IMG/VR virus record: IMGVR_UViG_2541047917_000005
Length of the DNA: 13,902 nt
Direction: 5' to 3' (one strand)
Origin: a virus
Taxonomy: Duplodnaviria; Heunggongvirae; Uroviricota; Caudoviricetes
The notes beneath the pieces are model-generated. The model saw nothing but the letters and a program-made list of their open reading frames with translations, did not search any database and was not told the DNA's origin. The position numbers were made by a program, and so were the translations under genes. Shown here one piece after another: positions 1,869-11,610 of the stretch (position 1 is the stretch's first letter; each line of letters begins with the position of its first letter).

Positions 1869-1895
1869 AGGGGAGCATATGACACATAAAACAAA

Positions 1896-1915
1896 GGCGA
1901 CCGGGGGCGGTCGCC
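1896..1915 (-). terminator. Perfect 8-bp stem hairpin, terminator-like on the minus strand
   Basis: GGCGACCG-GGGG-CGGTCGCC at 1896-1915. On the minus strand it is followed by a T-rich run (TTTGTTTTAT, reverse complement of 1886-1895). On the plus strand it is followed by AATGGGAAAAC, which is not terminator-like. Confidence 0.4.
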
Positions 1916-2237
1916 AATGGGAAAACACTAAACATAAGCCCGAACATCATAGCGATTTGCTGGCTGGTGGGCAAATCCTGAGCGGTCCTGCAATTACAGG
2001 AACTACGGCATTGTCGCGGTTAGGTTGTGCTCAACTTTTTTTCACCTCTATATCGCAAGCGCGCCGTAATAAATCGCCTTTATCGCTTCCGCAAAGATCC
2101 TTTTTCTCGAAGCATGATTTTAAGAGAAAGGCGACGACAATTAATAAAACCGCACAGAGTTTCCAATTTATAAATTTTGACATCTTTTACCCCTATGATT
2201 GTCGCCATCGTTCTTCATGTTATGACGTGATTAATGA

Positions 2238-2417
2238 TTACTCGGATTCACTGGCCTTGCGCCGCTGGCGATATTCAACTTCTCGTTTTAATGCCGCAGT
2301 AACAAATTGCCCCGTACTTTCTCCAGGCATTTTTACCGCCTCAACATTGTTCATAACTTCATGCGGAACCCTTGCCGCAACGGTTTGTGATTTTGCGTTT
2401 ACTGCTTTTGTCGCCAT
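2238..2417 (-). CDS. Putative ribbon-helix-helix (CopG/Arc-like) DNA-binding protein; 59 aa, below the ORF-track length cut-off
   Basis: Hand translation of the minus strand: MATKAVNAKSQTVAARVPHEVMNNVEAVKMPGESTGQFVTAALKREVEYRQRRKASESE. Pattern of beta-strand (QTVAARVP), helix (HEVMNNVEAV), Gly turn, helix (FVTAALKREVEY) fits an RHH fold. GAGGGG Shine-Dalgarno lies about 10 nt upstream of the ATG at 2417. Palindromic operator-like repeats sit 50-100 bp upstream of it. The plus-strand frame over the same bases gives a compositionally implausible peptide. Confidence 0.45.
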   Translation of the reverse strand: MATKAVNAKSQTVAARVPHEVMNNVEAVKMPGESTGQFVTAALKREVEYRQRRKASESE

Positions 2418-2467
2418 GTTGTGTACCCCTCATAAAAAACAAATGCAGTATGCAGGAAAAAAAATAA

Positions 2468-2520
2468 GTGTTCAACACTTGACGTGTTCAACACCTGAGT
2501 TTAAATTGGTGTTCAACACC
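2468..2520. promoter_or_regulatory. Three perfect copies of the 11-bp palindrome GTGTTCAACAC overlapping a sigma70-like promoter (operator array)
   Basis: Exact copies at 2468-2478, 2484-2494 and 2509-2519; each is a dyad (GTGTT-C-AACAC). TTGACG (2479-2484) and TAAATT (2502-2507) are spaced 17 bp, so two copies bracket the -35 and the third lies just downstream of the -10. The region is divergent between the minus-strand RHH ORF and the plus-strand Icd-like start at 2617. Confidence 0.5.
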
Positions 2521-2616
2521 TTGTTGGCGCAAGGTGCAGAAACGACGAAACCCGGCAGTGAGCTAACACTAACCGGGCTTCTAACCACCAACGATAGAAA
2601 GCGTATCGAGGTAGCT

Positions 2617-3231
2617 ATGTTAAATCATACCACACACCCGCAAGGGCGGGATTCGCACAACCTGAATAAATACATCTGGCGTTTTATCGCCCTGAGCACG
2701 GCACAACCGCGCGTGATTACCATCGAGGCCACCAGCGAACAGGAAGCACGCCAGAAAAACCAGTTGATCGCCACTGCCAGCCAGGGCTATGATTTACCCG
2801 CACCAGCAAAATCTGGTGCCGGGATTGGCGTCCTGGAAATGTCAAAGGCGATATATGACGCGCCAGCGTCTTTTTTATCGTCCGCATTCGCTCACATCAA
2901 AGTTATGGTGGGCTGGGCGGGGGCTTCTTCGGAAGCGCCGGTTCCCTTTGACGCCGGTTACGCCAACCCCGTTCAGTCCACCGCCAGCGAAATTGGCGTT
3001 TCCTGCGGTGGAAATTCTTCACTGTCAAAGGAGGCTGCCAACATGGCTACTATCCCTACCCTCGTACATTCTCAAACTGCCTTTATCTGGCGCTTTATCA
3101 TCTTTGGCGCGTCAGAATCTCAAATCGTCCACGTAACCGCCTGGACGGAAGGCGAAGCGCGTAACCGTTGCCCGTCCGGTTGTGTCGCTGTATTCGCCGC
3201 CCGTATTCGTCAGGGGGTGAGTCATGCATAA
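2617..3231 (+). CDS. Icd-like (host cell division inhibitor-like) protein with two tandem Icd-like domains in one frame
   Basis: ATG 2617 preceded by GAGG (2608-2611). Two related segments: NKYIWRFIALSTAQPRVITIEATSEQEARQ and QTAFIWRFIIFGASESQIVHVTAWTEGEARN..AVFAARIRQGV, recognised from memory as the Icd-like family of P4-like islands. No stop codon separates the two copies. The stop-free frame actually extends from 1879, but that upstream part is judged non-coding. Confidence 0.5.
   Translation: MLNHTTHPQGRDSHNLNKYIWRFIALSTAQPRVITIEATSEQEARQKNQLIATASQGYDLPAPAKSGAGIGVLEMSKAIYDAPASFLSSAFAHIKVMVGWAGASSEAPVPFDAGYANPVQSTASEIGVSCGGNSSLSKEAANMATIPTLVHSQTAFIWRFIIFGASESQIVHVTAWTEGEARNRCPSGCVAVFAARIRQGVSHA
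3043..3231 (+). CDS. Second Icd-like copy as a possible independent cistron (alternative to the 2617 start)
   Basis: Near-consensus Shine-Dalgarno AAGGAGG (3028-3034) 8 nt before ATG 3043. 62-aa product MATIPTLVHSQTAFIWRFIIFGASESQIVHVTAWTEGEARNRCPSGCVAVFAARIRQGVSHA has a typical Icd-like size. Confidence 0.45.
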   Translation: MATIPTLVHSQTAFIWRFIIFGASESQIVHVTAWTEGEARNRCPSGCVAVFAARIRQGVSHA

Positions 3232-3456: not shown

Positions 3457-3756
3457 ATGAAAAATAAAAATTCTGGCTTTACCGCCAGCGGCCCTGCTCG
3501 TCCTGAATTTATGAACGGCGATATTTACCGCGATAAATATGGCGGCATGGTAACGATTAAAGGCGTGGCAGAACGGCGCATCACCTACGGTCGTGAAGGC
3601 TACGAATATGATTGCGTGATGCCTGTTTATCAGTTTCGGCGTGATTTTTCTCTGGTACAGGCAGCGCCCCGCAGTAAACCAACCAGCAGGGAGAAAGCAC
3701 GCGCCAATATTCAGGAAATAAAAAAGATGCTTAACGTATTCAGGGGTAAAAAATGA
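3457..3756 (+). CDS. Hypothetical protein (99 aa), translationally coupled to the primase/helicase
   Basis: ATG 3457 with GGAGA upstream. Its stop TGA overlaps the ATG of the next gene (ATGA at 3753-3756). No family recognised by eye. Confidence 0.55.
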   Translation: MKNKNSGFTASGPARPEFMNGDIYRDKYGGMVTIKGVAERRITYGREGYEYDCVMPVYQFRRDFSLVQAAPRSKPTSREKARANIQEIKKMLNVFRGKK

Positions 3757-5501
3757 AACTGGCACCGAACGTAAAAAAACAGCCACGCGGAATAAAACAC
3801 AAAGACACAGAGGTAATTATTTTCGCGGGTAGTGATGCCTGGTCGCACGCGAAACAATGGCAGGAGCAGGATGGCCCCGCATCCGGCGATAATGTGCCGC
3901 CTGTGTGGCTTGGGCCAAATCAGCTTGCCGAACTTGATGCACTGAAAATTGTTCCGGATGGAAAAAAACGCGTAAGGCTGTACCAGGCCGGAGAACTGGA
4001 TTTGGTGGAGACCAAAAAGATTGGTCAGAAGCTGGCGGCGGCAGATATTCAGGACGCAAATTTTTACCCCGAAGGAATGCACGTCCAGAAGTGTGAAAAC
4101 TGGCGGCGCTATCTGAATGCTGAGCGTGAAAATATTGCCGCAGGGCTTACCATGCCGGAGCAGAAAAATACGCAACTGGCACAAATGGCAGACAGTGAGC
4201 GCGCACAGATGCTTGCTGGTCGATTTGATGGCGTTTGTGTGCATCCGGAAAGTGAAATCGTTCACGTATGGCGCGGCGGGGTATGGTGTCCGGTCAGCAC
4301 AATGGAACTTAGCCGCGAAATGGTGGCGATCTATTCAGAGCACAGGGCCACTTTCAGCAAGCGCGTAATCAATAACGCCGTGGAAGCGTTAAAAGTTATT
4401 GCCGAACCAATGGGCGAGCCGTCCGGCGATTTGCTGCCGTTCGCCAATGGTGCGCTTGACCTGAAAACGGGGGAATTTTCCCCGCACACGCCGGAGAACT
4501 GGATCACCACGAACAACGGCATTGAGTACACGCCACCAGCACCAGGGGAGAACATCCGCGATAACGCGCCAAACTTTCATAAATGGCTTGAGCACGCAGC
4601 CGGAAAAGACTCGCGCAAGATGATGCGTATATGTGCCGCGCTGTACATGATTATGGCGAACCGGTACGACTGGCAGATGTTTATTGAGGCCACCGGAGAC
4701 GGCGGGAGCGGTAAAAGTACATTCACACACATCGCCAGCCTTCTGGCAGGGAAACAGAACACGGTGAGCGCGGAGATGACATCGCTTGATGATGCTGGTG
4801 GGCGTGCGCAGGTTGTCGGGAGTCGTCTTATCGTCCTGGCAGACCAGCCGAAATATACAGGCGAAGGCACGGGCATCAAGAAAATCACGGGCGGCGACCC
4901 CGTGGAAATCAACCCGAAATATGAAAAGCGTTTCACTACGGTAATCAGGGCGGTGGTGCTGGCGACCAATAACAACCCGATGATATTCACCGAACGGGCC
5001 GGAGGCGTGTCACGTCGTCGGGTTATTTTCCGCTTCGACAATATCGTAAGCGAGGCAGAAAAAGACAGGGAGCTACCGGAAAAGATTGCGGCTGAAATCC
5101 CTGTCATTATCCGCCGCTTGCTGGCGAACTTTGCCGACCCTGAAAAGGCACGGGCTTTACTCATTGAACAGCGAGACGGTGATGAAGCACTGGCGATAAA
5201 GCAGCAGACGGATCCGGTTATTGAGTTTTGCCAGTTCCTTAACTTTCTGGAAGAAGCACGCGGCCTGATGATGGGCGGCGGCGGTGACTCTTCCAGGTAC
5301 ACGACCAGAAACAGCCTTTACCGCGTCTATCTGGCGTTTATGGCGTATGCAGGCAGGAGCAAACCGCTAAACGTAAATGACTTTGGCAAGGCTATGAAGC
5401 CAGCCGCGAAAGTTTACGGACATGAATATATTACGCGGAAAGTTAAGGGAGTAACGCAGACTAACGCAATAACAACAGACGATTGCGACGCGTTTTTATA
5501 A
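3753..5501 (+). CDS. DNA primase/helicase of the phage/plasmid primase P4 family (D5_N-like region plus SF3 P-loop NTPase)
   Basis: 582 aa. Walker A GDGGSGKST encoded at 4695-4721. Upstream region LLPFANGALDLKTGEFSPHTPENWITTNNGIEYTP is typical of the P4-alpha / D5 N-terminal-like domain. AGGGG Shine-Dalgarno 6 nt upstream of the ATG. The N-terminal ~200 aa (VIIFAGSDAWSH...) could be toprim-like but is not confidently assigned. Confidence 0.9.
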   Translation: MKLAPNVKKQPRGIKHKDTEVIIFAGSDAWSHAKQWQEQDGPASGDNVPPVWLGPNQLAELDALKIVPDGKKRVRLYQAGELDLVETKKIGQKLAAADIQDANFYPEGMHVQKCENWRRYLNAERENIAAGLTMPEQKNTQLAQMADSERAQMLAGRFDGVCVHPESEIVHVWRGGVWCPVSTMELSREMVAIYSEHRATFSKRVINNAVEALKVIAEPMGEPSGDLLPFANGALDLKTGEFSPHTPENWITTNNGIEYTPPAPGENIRDNAPNFHKWLEHAAGKDSRKMMRICAALYMIMANRYDWQMFIEATGDGGSGKSTFTHIASLLAGKQNTVSAEMTSLDDAGGRAQVVGSRLIVLADQPKYTGEGTGIKKITGGDPVEINPKYEKRFTTVIRAVVLATNNNPMIFTERAGGVSRRRVIFRFDNIVSEAEKDRELPEKIAAEIPVIIRRLLANFADPEKARALLIEQRDGDEALAIKQQTDPVIEFCQFLNFLEEARGLMMGGGGDSSRYTTRNSLYRVYLAFMAYAGRSKPLNVNDFGKAMKPAAKVYGHEYITRKVKGVTQTNAITTDDCDAFL

Positions 5502-5512
5502 TTTTTGGCAAT

Positions 5513-5745
5513 TGCTGTCTACCTTGTCTACCTGATTACATAAAAGTTGTTTTAATTCAGTGTATTAATTTAGGTAGACAGCTTTTTTTTACTGTCTACA
5601 AGCTGTCTACCTTGTCTACCTGTTTTTGTAGCCAGCCGGAGGGATGAGTAGACATCAGGTAGATAGCGATTTTTTACTGTCTACTTCCATTAAACCCGCG
5701 TCATTACTGGCCTGAGCATCTATCAGGTAGACAGAGTAGACAAGG
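5513..5745. repeat. Putative replication origin: about 11 iterons with core TGTCTAC(C) in both orientations, flanking an AT-rich stretch
   Basis: Plus-orientation copies at 5515-5523, 5524-5532, 5592-5600, 5603-5611, 5612-5620, 5677-5685. Inverted copies (GGTAGACA) at 5573-5582, 5648-5654, 5658-5665, 5726-5734, 5736-5745. AT-rich segment 5533-5572. Lies immediately 3' of the primase/helicase gene. Confidence 0.6.
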
Positions 5746-5790
5746 TGGGGGTAGGTCCAAAACTTTTTAAACGAGGGGGTAAAAATAAAA

Positions 5791-6048
5791 ATGCACACAT
5801 CAGGAAAATTTAACAATCAGAAGAAATCACATAACCGCGCCATTGACCTTACAGAGCACTGGCTGAGGGTGGCGATAAAAATCATCGACCGCAACGCGGG
5901 AGAAGGATACGCGAAAGCACATCCTGAACTAATAAGCGCATTCATGACCACAGCGGCGGCAAACTTTGCCACGCTGACAGAACGGGAGATTGCCGAAGCG
6001 GAACAGGTAACAACCATCAACGTTAAAACCGGAGAGGTGGAATCATGA
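5791..6048 (+). CDS. Hypothetical small protein (85 aa)
   Basis: ATG 5791 with GAGGGGG upstream (5773-5779). Stop overlaps the SSB start (ATGA). No family recognised by eye. Confidence 0.5.
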   Translation: MHTSGKFNNQKKSHNRAIDLTEHWLRVAIKIIDRNAGEGYAKAHPELISAFMTTAAANFATLTEREIAEAEQVTTINVKTGEVES

Positions 6049-6455
6049 CAGCACAGATAGCCGCTTACGGGCGGCTGGTGGCTGACCCGCAGTTAAAGAC
6101 CACCAGCAAGGGCACACAAATGGCTATGGCAAGCATGGCGGTCCCCCTGCCGTGCAATCAGGCAGATGACGGACAGGCGACGATGTGGTTATCCGTCCTG
6201 GCGTTTGGCAGACAGGCCGACGCACTGGCAAAACACCACAAAGGCGAGCTGGTGAGCGTGGCGGGTAACATGCAGGTAAGCCAGTGGACAGGCCAGAACG
6301 GCGAAACGCGGCAGGGCTGGCAGGTTATTGCAGACAGCGTAATCAGTGCCAGAACGGCGCGACCTGGTGGGAGCCGACGCAAGACCACAGGCACACAGGG
6401 TAATCAGCCACCAGCGGGAGGCGATGACCCTTACGGTGATGATATTCCGTTCTGA
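6045..6455 (+). CDS. ssb: Single-stranded DNA-binding protein
   Basis: 136 aa. OB-fold-like N-terminal region (GRLVADPQLKTTSKG...WLSVLAFGRQADALAKHHKGELVSVAGNMQVSQWTGQNGETRQGWQVIAD), a Gly/Pro-rich linker and the hallmark C-terminal acidic tail ending DDIPF. GGAGAGG Shine-Dalgarno before ATG 6045. Confidence 0.85.
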   Translation: MTAQIAAYGRLVADPQLKTTSKGTQMAMASMAVPLPCNQADDGQATMWLSVLAFGRQADALAKHHKGELVSVAGNMQVSQWTGQNGETRQGWQVIADSVISARTARPGGSRRKTTGTQGNQPPAGGDDPYGDDIPF

Positions 6456-6465
6456 GAGGGTGACG

Positions 6466-6723
6466 ATGGTACATGACCGCATAGCGGAAGAACTCGAGGC
6501 GAAAGGCTTTTACCGGAGAGCGTCGGCGCGATGGGGTGAAGTCATGCTACTGGTGGAGACAGACAAGGAACGGGAGCACATCACGATGCGACGGCTGGAA
6601 TGTTGCAGAAAATCGACAAGGCCAGCACTCGGGCCGGACAATTTCAGCGATATTAAAAAAGCCGCTGATCGTGTTTATGCTGAAATGGGATTAGATAAAT
6701 TAAAGGGGGAAACATGCCAGTAA
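6466..6723 (+). CDS. PerC-family-like transcriptional regulator
   Basis: 85-aa product MVHDRIAEELEAKGFYRRASARWGEVMLL... resembles the PerC/Pch family motif (AEeLEakG.yRRAa.RW.eVm), recalled from memory. ATG 6466 is 5 nt after GAGGG. The ORF-track version starting at 6346 is a 5' extension that overlaps ssb. Confidence 0.6.
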   Translation: MVHDRIAEELEAKGFYRRASARWGEVMLLVETDKEREHITMRRLECCRKSTRPALGPDNFSDIKKAADRVYAEMGLDKLKGETCQ

Positions 6724-9039: not shown

Positions 9040-10254
9040 ATGTGGCCTTTCAGACGAAAACAAGAGCATCGCAGCCTTACGCTGGATGAATTTATGGCGC
9101 TGGCTGGCACATCGAACACGGGGGCGGGTGAGTACGTATCATCGGGGACAGCGGAATCACTCCCCGCCGTCATGAACGCCGTCACGGTCATCTCTGAGGC
9201 GGTGGCTACTATGCCATGCTACCTGTACCTGGTACGCAATGAGAAGGGGAAGGAGGCCCGCGAGTGGCTTGATTCTCATCCGGTCGATCATATCCTCAAC
9301 GAGCGCCCGAACGCGTGGCAGACGCCCTATCAGTTTAAGCGAATGATGGTCCGCCACTGCCTGTTAAACGGTAATGCTTATGCGGTGATTCAGTGGGGGC
9401 GTGATGGTTTTCCGGTGGCTTTGCACCCTTACCCGCCGCAGTCGGTGAATGTTGAGCAGACAGGGGAACATAACTGGCGTTACCGCATCACTGACGCTTA
9501 CAGCGGAAACACCCGCAACTATTTACCGTGGGAGGTTCTCCACCTTCGTTACTCCACGGATGACGGCTTTATGGGGCGCTCACCTGTGACCATCTGCCGC
9601 GAATCGCTGGGGCTTGGGCTGGCCCAACAGCGCCACGGCGCGAGCGTGATGCGTGATGGCATGATGGCAGCAGGGGTTATCACGTCAGGCGAATGGCTGG
9701 ACGGCGTGAAGGGCAAACAGGCATTAGCCGCACTGGAACGCTACAAAGGAGCCAGAAACGCCGGAAAAACGCCCATTCTTGAAGGGGGTATGAGCTATCA
9801 GCAGCTTGGCATGAGTAACCAGGATGCTGAATGGCTGGCCTCCCGTCGCTTCACCATTGAAGACATCGCCCGAATGTTCAACGTCTCGCCGATTTTTCTG
9901 CAGGAATACAGCAACAGCACCTACAGCAATTTCAGCGAGGCAAGCCGCGCGTTTCTGACCATGACGATGCGCCCGTGGCTGGCGAACTTTGAGCAGCAGA
10001 TAAAAAATGCTTTGCTGGTGGCCTCGCCTGTACCTGGTATCCGGTATCAGGTGGAGTTTGACAGCGCGGACCTGTTACGGGCCACACCTGGCGAACGCTT
10101 TGCCACCTATGAACGCGGCATCAAGTCCGGCGTTATGTGCCCGAACGAAGCCCGCGAACGTGAGGGATTATCGCCGCGTGATGGTGGCGATGAGTTCAGC
10201 CAGGCCTGGAAACAGGAGATCGAAGTAAAGGACGATAAAGAGGGCAAATCATGA
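9040..10254 (+). CDS. Portal protein, HK97 family
   Basis: 404 aa with portal-like core (…NGNAYAVIQWGRDG…WEVLHLRY…MRPWLANFEQQI…). ATG 9040 is 1 nt after the protease stop, preceded by GGGGGTG. Confidence 0.9.
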   Translation: MWPFRRKQEHRSLTLDEFMALAGTSNTGAGEYVSSGTAESLPAVMNAVTVISEAVATMPCYLYLVRNEKGKEAREWLDSHPVDHILNERPNAWQTPYQFKRMMVRHCLLNGNAYAVIQWGRDGFPVALHPYPPQSVNVEQTGEHNWRYRITDAYSGNTRNYLPWEVLHLRYSTDDGFMGRSPVTICRESLGLGLAQQRHGASVMRDGMMAAGVITSGEWLDGVKGKQALAALERYKGARNAGKTPILEGGMSYQQLGMSNQDAEWLASRRFTIEDIARMFNVSPIFLQEYSNSTYSNFSEASRAFLTMTMRPWLANFEQQIKNALLVASPVPGIRYQVEFDSADLLRATPGERFATYERGIKSGVMCPNEAREREGLSPRDGGDEFSQAWKQEIEVKDDKEGKS

Positions 10255-11322: not shown

Positions 11323-11491
11323 ACAGGAACAAAACAGGCTGATTCGTGGACTGATAAGGCAGCATGACGCATGGAAGACACAGGAGACAGGGCACAAAGC
11401 CAACAGGACAGGGCGCACAGAACGCACCACCGCGAAGCGATTAACCGACCGTGACCGCGAGGTCATGGAATGTTTTCGCAATCGCTGGTGA
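11306..11491 (+). CDS. Possible small ORF (61 aa) overlapping the HNH 3' end
   Basis: ATG 11306 in the +1 frame relative to HNH; product MAMMTEQEQNRLIRGLIRQHDAWKTQETGHKANRTGRTERTTAKRLTDRDREVMECFRNRW. No convincing Shine-Dalgarno. May be translated or may simply mark the packaging-site region. Confidence 0.2.
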   Translation: MAMMTEQEQNRLIRGLIRQHDAWKTQETGHKANRTGRTERTTAKRLTDRDREVMECFRNRW

Positions 11492-11610
11492 GGCCGTCAG
11501 AGGGGGTGGGGGTGGTTTTCAGGACGAAACCGTCCCTGCCGGACACCGACCGCCTCCTCAAATTTTTATGCACGGGAATTTTTTGAAAAATAATCTGACG
11601 AAAAATAAGC

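Follow-up and report, generated by a model that had tools for sequence, protein, structure and literature searches.

Positions 5513-5745 of the 13,902-bp stretch of DNA analyzed here (the window) most probably form the vegetative replication origin of an Escherichia coli capsid-forming phage-inducible chromosomal island (cf-PICI), orthologous to the experimentally tested origin of the island EcCICFT073. As judged from comparisons of sequence and repeat layout, we put the probability of this reading at about 90%. An origin is thus located for a widespread satellite replicon, which is useful for annotation, for satellite-derived vectors, and for studies of satellite incompatibility.

The Element and Its Distribution

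The window is a cf-PICI of E. coli. Its genes follow the order int, alpA, pri-rep, ssb, perC, capsid, protease, portal, connectors, hnh, terS, and terL, which is that of proteobacterial capsid-forming PICIs (bioRxiv 10.1101/2022.09.08.507074). All listed genes lie on the plus strand. Those for a tyrosine integrase (1-1239) and AlpA (1572-1868), an Ash/Icd-like region ending at 3231, and a DUF4222 gene (3457-3756) precede the gene for the initiator Pri-Rep (3753-5501). The first gene past the origin (5791-6048) is small and conserved, encodes 85 amino acids (phrog_1231), and is preceded by a conserved ribosome-binding region (5759-5790). It is followed by the genes for SSB (6045-6455) and PerC and, further downstream, by those for the major capsid protein, prohead protease, portal, head completion protein, connector, HNH, TerS, and TerL. 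Gram-negative PICIs have been described as unidirectionally transcribed (PMC6092414).

Complete E. coli genomes were searched with the ori region plus the last 100 nt of the Pri-Rep gene as query. The ori region found matches in 564 of 5,426 genomes, and the matching locus was chromosomal in every case. A DNA search of a phage database with the ori region returned no match.

Three observations were made elsewhere in the window. The near-palindrome GTGTTCAACAC occurs three times (2468-2478, 2484-2494, and 2509-2519; 0.26 copies expected) inside a mechanical 450-aa ORF (1879-3231). The copies look like operators in a divergent regulatory region, with two small minus-strand ORFs (2031-2183 and 2238-2417) on one side and the Ash/Icd-like coding part on the other; if they are operators, the 450-aa ORF probably does not represent a single real gene. 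Between hnh and terS, a gap (11323-11610) contains G-rich runs (GAGGGGGTGGGGGTGG) as well as an AT-rich tract right before terS; this gap is likely where the cf-PICI has its cos or packaging region. The mechanical PerC ORF (6346-6723) shares about 110 nt with the end of ssb. Its Pfam match begins only at residue 41, and the true start of perC is probably further downstream, near 6460.

The Repeat Cluster

All copies of TGTCTAC in the window fall within 5516-5742. Ten exact copies, distributed over both strands, are packed into 227 bp, whereas 0.71 copies (S.D. 0.81, maximum 4) were expected in the window from dinucleotide-preserving shuffles, and none of 200 shuffles reached ten. A further site with one mismatch, TATCTAC at 5659-5665 on the minus strand, lies inside the cluster and brings the number of sites to 11. 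The 13.9-kb window, in which the element is contained from int to beyond terL, has no further cluster of TGTCTAC or TCTACC. Exact 9-bp repeats make up the tandem pairs at 5516-5532 and 5604-5620, and an inverted tandem pair (inverted repeats I1/I2) is present at 5726-5742.

The initial annotation had described about 11 copies of TGTCTAC(C) in both orientations within about 230 bp, tandem pairs mirrored by an inverted pair, and an AT-rich segment between the pairs. The cluster is real, and this description proved accurate apart from two small corrections. One concerns the core: the repeats exist as described, but the core kept across loci is TCTAC(C) and not TGTCTAC. The other concerns the AT-rich segment, 5533-5572. 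Its GC content is indeed only 17.5% as compared with 51.5% for the window, but it divides only the first tandem pair from the remaining array, with iterons 1 and 2 on one side and iterons 3-11 on the other. Only three other 30-mers of the window are less stable than the one at 5540-5569 (ΔG of -30.8 versus a mean of -41.9, S.D. 3.5).

Relation to the Tested Origin of EcCICFT073

EcCICFT073 resides in strain CFT073, where its capsid and head-decoration genes match c1499 and c1500 (PMC6092414). Its pri-ori segment allows a temperature-sensitive plasmid to be maintained at 44 °C (Fillol-Salom et al. 2018, ISME J, PMC6092414). Deletion of pri from this plasmid abolished colony formation, whereas deletion of ori "significantly reduced" it, with some colonies still appearing (PMC6092414). 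The two islands differ in type: that of the window is a cf-PICI and carries a complete capsid and terminase module, whereas EcCICFT073 belongs to the classical PICIs.

The Pri-Rep proteins of the two islands are 90% identical. The EcCICFT073 ori begins at the same place, 14 nt after the stop codon, and is colinear with the region in the window, having the same 11 sites in the same orientations and with the same spacings. The conserved block at 5696-5709 (see below) and the downstream genes are shared as well. The spacers have diverged, and the mean column identity of the two ori regions is 87%; some iterons of EcCICFT073 read TATCTACC, CTCTACC, or ACTCTACC as compared with TGTCTACC in the window. 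As for the EcCICFT073 type of origin, the region is positioned 3' of the initiator gene, its iterons flank an AT-rich segment, it is orthologous by sequence and layout, and it is part of a PICI.

The initial annotation had read the region as an initiator-binding origin. This reading was supported by the D5/P4-type helicase encoded 14 nt upstream, by the homology of its C-terminal domain to the P4 α structure 1KA8, and by the colinearity of all 11 sites with the EcCICFT073 ori. Pri-Rep-dependent autonomous replication has been shown for the EcCICFT073 ortholog and, by transfer, is predicted for the origin in the window.

Architecture of the Probable Origin Region

The repeats occupy the 289-bp gap between the Pri-Rep gene and the next gene (5502-5790), and the first iteron lies 14-15 nt past the Pri-Rep stop codon (5499-5501). 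The site topology is >>[47]<[21]>[11]>[9]>[33]<[11]<[21]>[47]<[9]<. When read on the minus strand, the last five sites are spaced like the first five, and the origin therefore consists of two inverted modules of about 100 bp each that form a dyad. The left module (5512-5612, plus strand) consists of two iterons, a spacer, an inverted iteron, a T-run, and two iterons. The right module (5646-5746) has the same layout on the minus strand, as evident from spacings and alignment, and is identical to the left one at 55 of 101 positions.

Given as 8-mers, iterons 1 and 2 (5516-5523 and 5525-5532, plus strand) read TGTCTACC t TGTCTACC and form a tandem with 9-bp spacing, the TCTACC core of which is invariant in 11 aligned loci. 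They are followed by the AT-rich spacer of the left module (5533-5572), a predicted DNA unwinding element on account of its GC content and low stability. Iteron 3 (GGTAGACA, 5573-5580, minus strand) faces iterons 1 and 2. A run of eight T residues (5583-5590, plus strand), part of the direct repeat D2, separates it from iteron 4, and iterons 4, 5, and 6 are located on the plus strand at 5593-5600, 5604-5611, and 5613-5620. The dyad axis passes through a central 27-bp spacer (5621-5647; 52% GC), the sequence of which is not conserved. On the other side of the axis, iterons 7 (AGTAGACA, 5647-5654) and 8 (GGTAGATA, 5658-5665) lie on the minus strand and iteron 9 (TGTCTACT, 5678-5685) on the plus strand, with a run of six T residues between iterons 8 and 9 (5670-5675). 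Iterons 10 and 11 (5726-5733 and 5735-5742, minus strand), GGTAGACA g AGTAGACA, are the inverted tandem pair. With 46% GC, the spacer of the right module is not AT-rich.

Single-strand DNA folding of the left module gave z values of -3.5 and -4.2 relative to shuffled sequences, solely through the inverted iterons. A pattern scan of 5480-5800 detected no DnaA box, IHF consensus, GATC, or Fis pattern.

Two mechanical ORFs, 5483-5647 on the plus strand and 5655-5816 on the minus strand, were rejected as genes because the alignment of the loci contains single-base indels and because conservation tracks the iterons and not codon positions. A match to the AfaR sRNA (Rfam) on the minus strand of 5469-5669 was also dismissed. 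It was below threshold (25 bits versus a gathering score of 100; E value 0.028), its score was driven by the inverted iterons, and it was judged to be due to chance.

Conservation and Subtypes among E. coli Loci

Among 11 divergent E. coli loci, 44 of the 55 iteron-core (TCTAC) columns were invariant as compared with 48 of the 189 other intergenic columns. The odds ratio was 11.8 with a Fisher p of 4e-13, a value that overstates significance because the columns of related sequences are treated as independent. Both the TCTAC core and the positions of the sites were conserved in 14 E. coli loci, in which the spacers diverged. The site offsets from the stop codon were 14, 23, ~70, 81/91, 101, 110, 144, 155, 175, 223, and 232.

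The loci fall into two subtypes. In the first, iterons of the form YTG/YTA-TCTACC go along with the C-terminal Pri-Rep sequence VN[DE]FGK; in the second, CCN-TCTACC iterons, the fourth of which is flipped, go along with VA[DE]FSK. The association between the iteron flank and the winged-helix residues, amino acids 542 and 545 of Pri-Rep (window 5376-5385), was perfect in the 14 loci. Because gene and ori are physically linked, this covariation is suggestive only. In the same suggestive sense, the subtypes could correspond to groups of origin specificity, through which satellites residing in one cell would replicate independently of each other.

A decayed copy of the element is found in E. coli VL40 (NZ_CM177011.1, 1787354-1799804), where insertions of the IS421 and ISSso6 families break the primase gene. 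The origin region and the downstream gene of this copy have retained 98% identity to the window.

The Initiator Protein

The gene at 3753-5501 encodes a D5/P4-type SF3 helicase-initiator of 582 amino acids, as indicated by Pfam, TIGR01613, the structure 7OLA, and the identity to EcCICFT073 Pri-Rep. It comprises a Toprim-like N-terminal domain (amino acids 1 to ~135), D5_N (151-280), an SF3 helicase domain (DUF5906, 314-415), and a Pox_D5/P4-type C-terminal part. TIGR01613 (P4-family primase_Cterm) scored above cutoff, and the helicase core matched SaPI5 PriRep (7OLA) with 6e-15.

Residues 486-574 (5208-5474, plus strand) constitute the predicted origin-binding winged-helix domain. A phmmer match to P4 α (1KA8) with an E value of 1.7e-6 supports homology of this C-terminal domain to the origin-binding winged helix of P4 α. 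The assignment relies on sequence homology because structure prediction of the C-terminal part was poor: AF2 run on the single sequence reached a pLDDT of 48 and yielded, with low confidence, just a helix-helix-helix-hairpin pattern.

The initial annotation had named the gene a primase/helicase. The helicase part of this name holds, but the primase label is doubtful. A primase domain was not recognized, since residues 1-150 had no sequence match in Pfam or the PDB, and hhalign of the N-domain profile against residues 1-330 of P4 α gave a probability of 0.4%, i.e. no relationship. The N-domain has a Toprim-like fold that lacks the catalytic acidic motifs and is also found fused to AAA_25/RepA-type helicases. 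It looks like a degenerate Toprim domain, likely non-catalytic.

Pri-Rep is 100% identical to E. coli proteins. In a search for full-length homologs, all of the matches listed (at least 120) were at least 98% identical and, where names were given, came from E. coli or Shigella. The corresponding search with the C-terminal domain returned only near-identical or frameshifted fragments and no alignment fit for structure prediction. A scan of contigs with the C-terminal part of Pri-Rep yielded a single locus, from Shigella, which made a cross-genus comparison impossible.

A Conserved Block in the Right Module

The spacer of the right module contains an invariant non-iteron block, CCGCGYCATTACTG (also written CCGCGTCATTACTG), at 5696-5709 on the plus strand. 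It is unchanged across the E. coli copies compared; within it, the runs 5696-5700 and 5702-5709 were invariant in 11 loci. The core of the block, CGCCATTACTG, also occurs in O157-type loci and is found only once in the window. In the cf-PICI-like element vB_KppS-Ant, the block is absent and AT-rich DNA is present in its place. Scans for a promoter, a DnaA site, or an IHF site that would account for the block were negative, and single-strand DNA folding around it was the same as for shuffled sequences (z of -0.1 to -1.0).

The block, standing in place of a right-module AT-rich spacer in the E. coli Pri-Rep family, might be a second functional site and, separately, the flank subtypes might be specificity groups, although we consider this reading unlikely. 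If it is such a site, the block may serve a host or helper factor as a signal for docking or priming, e.g. as a CTG start site for DnaG, and such a start site may offset the degenerate Toprim domain of the initiator. Alternatively, it may be a licensing site that couples replication of the satellite to helper infection.

Alternative Roles of the Repeat Region

In P4, the element directly after α is crr, and ori is about 4.4 kb away. By this precedent, the region could be a crr-like cis-acting replication enhancer and initiation could occur elsewhere in the element. Each crr unit aligns with the modules of the window, and the left module of O157-type loci, in which the fourth iteron is flipped, is similar to a crr unit. 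However, such an enhancer would leave the origin itself to be sought in a window that is free of any second TGTCTAC or TCTACC cluster, and the left module matches P4 ori itself in topology and spacing. The published minimal construct of EcCICFT073 likewise argues against an enhancer, which we regard as improbable.

The location of the cluster, in the gap upstream of the next genes, together with the strict conservation of the ribosome-binding region and of the block at 5696-5709, would also suit a transcriptional operator that serves an operon starting at 5791 (hypothetical gene, ssb, perC, and morphogenesis genes) and is bound by Pri-Rep or by a regulator of the satellite or helper. Iteron origins often double in autoregulation, which likewise counts in favor of an operator. 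On the other hand, a scan of 5400-5900 detected neither a σ70-like promoter on the plus strand nor a terminator, which fits read-through transcription. The topology, with its AT-rich spacer and its 11 sites distributed over two inverted modules, matches that of P4-family origins, and the published phenotype of the ori deletion is a replication phenotype, so that a role as operator is distinctly improbable. Short motifs in both orientations occur at terminase-binding sites and integrase arm sites too, and P4 attP arm repeats are found near crr. Nonetheless, a packaging (cos/pac) or recombination (att, integrase arm-site) element is exceedingly improbable: cf-PICIs have an hnh-terS-terL module, the candidate cos region of which lies about 5.6 kb away in the window, the integrase gene occupies the opposite end of the element, and the motif is related to the type-1 replication iteron of P4.

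Proposed Mode of Initiation

With the region read as a replication origin, helper-phage induction would lead the satellite to express Pri-Rep, and the C-terminal winged helix (amino acids ~486-574) is predicted to bind the eleven iterons through their TCTAC(C) core. These are arranged in two inverted modules of about 100 bp, each with two tandem iterons, a spacer of about 40 bp, an inverted iteron, a T-run, and one or two further iterons. Bound protomers would assemble into SF3 helicase hexamers, presumably loaded on the convergent sites, and the hexamers would then melt the spacer at 5533-5572. Self-loading of the helicases would result in bidirectional replication. Primers would probably be supplied by host DnaG because the N-domain of Pri-Rep looks like a Toprim domain without acidic catalytic motifs.

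The feature class and the mechanism are already known. The analysis does not resolve an open question because both have been published, with tests on an initiator of 90% identity. Its additions are modest: the two-module dyad, the colinearity with P4 ori and crr, a conserved non-iteron block, and a "primase" domain that is likely non-catalytic.

Comparison with Known Replication Origins

Classical plasmid iteron origins (e.g. those of pSC101, RK2, and R6K), which depend on Rep and DnaA, have DnaA boxes, IHF sites, or GATC clusters beside the iterons, in contrast to 5480-5800 of the window. The origins of the Staphylococcus aureus PICIs (SaPIs) count among the closest known systems. They are located just 3' of rep and have 6-12 short iterons in both orientations and a central AT-rich region, with at least two iterons on each side of this region in opposite directions (PMC9371898). 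SaPI Reps are self-loading SF3 helicases, the C-terminal winged helix of which recognizes the iterons (PMC9371898). In the window, there are 11 sites, and iterons 1 and 2 on the plus strand face iteron 3 on the minus strand across the AT-rich spacer. SaPI iterons, from Gram-positive hosts, are penta- or hexanucleotides of unrelated sequence, and their AT-rich region is central, whereas that of the window is off-center because only the left spacer is AT-rich.

P4 is related in protein and repeats alike. The C-terminal domain (1KA8) and the SF3 helicase of Pri-Rep are homologous to α, whereas the N-terminal primase region of α, about 330 residues long, is missing from the window protein. The iterons of P4 were taken from its annotated record. 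The type-1 iteron, TGTTCACC, has the same base as TGTCTACC of the window at six of eight positions; in ori, the record lists three type-2 repeats as well, and the comparison covers the type-1 iterons. Both elements share a module of two tandem iterons, a 42-47-bp spacer, an inverted iteron, and further iterons. In the sense of α, P4 ori reads >>[42]<[23]>[11]>[10]> and the left module of the window >>[47]<[21]>[11]>[9]>, and the AT-rich spacer of the left module aligns with that of P4 ori. The modules of the window also align with each 120-bp unit of crr. In P4, crr (4291-4590) adjoins α, and ori (type-1 repeats at 9310-9413) is separate. Unlike this bipartite arrangement, the window has its two modules fused as an inverted pair in a single cluster directly after the gene. 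The initial annotation had spoken of the usual PICI/P4 arrangement; an ori beside the replication gene is indeed that of PICIs but not that of P4, because it is crr that adjoins α.

A distant relative is vB_KppS-Ant (LR881103), an induced cf-PICI-like element of 16.5 kb. Its full-length homologous initiator is 41% identical to that of the window. Residues 134-581 of this initiator, the helicase and winged-helix region, are 51% identical to P4 α, and the alignment starts at α residue 327. An iteron array follows directly downstream of its gene and shows the same dyad topology as the window, with AT-rich spacers in both modules. The two modules of the window, both halves of the vB_KppS-Ant array, P4 ori, and both P4 crr units could be combined in a seven-way colinear alignment. 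The vB_KppS-Ant iteron is TGTTCACC, exactly the annotated type-1 iteron of P4. Among the internal evidence for the repeats as binding sites of the initiator, this change of iteron is the strongest.
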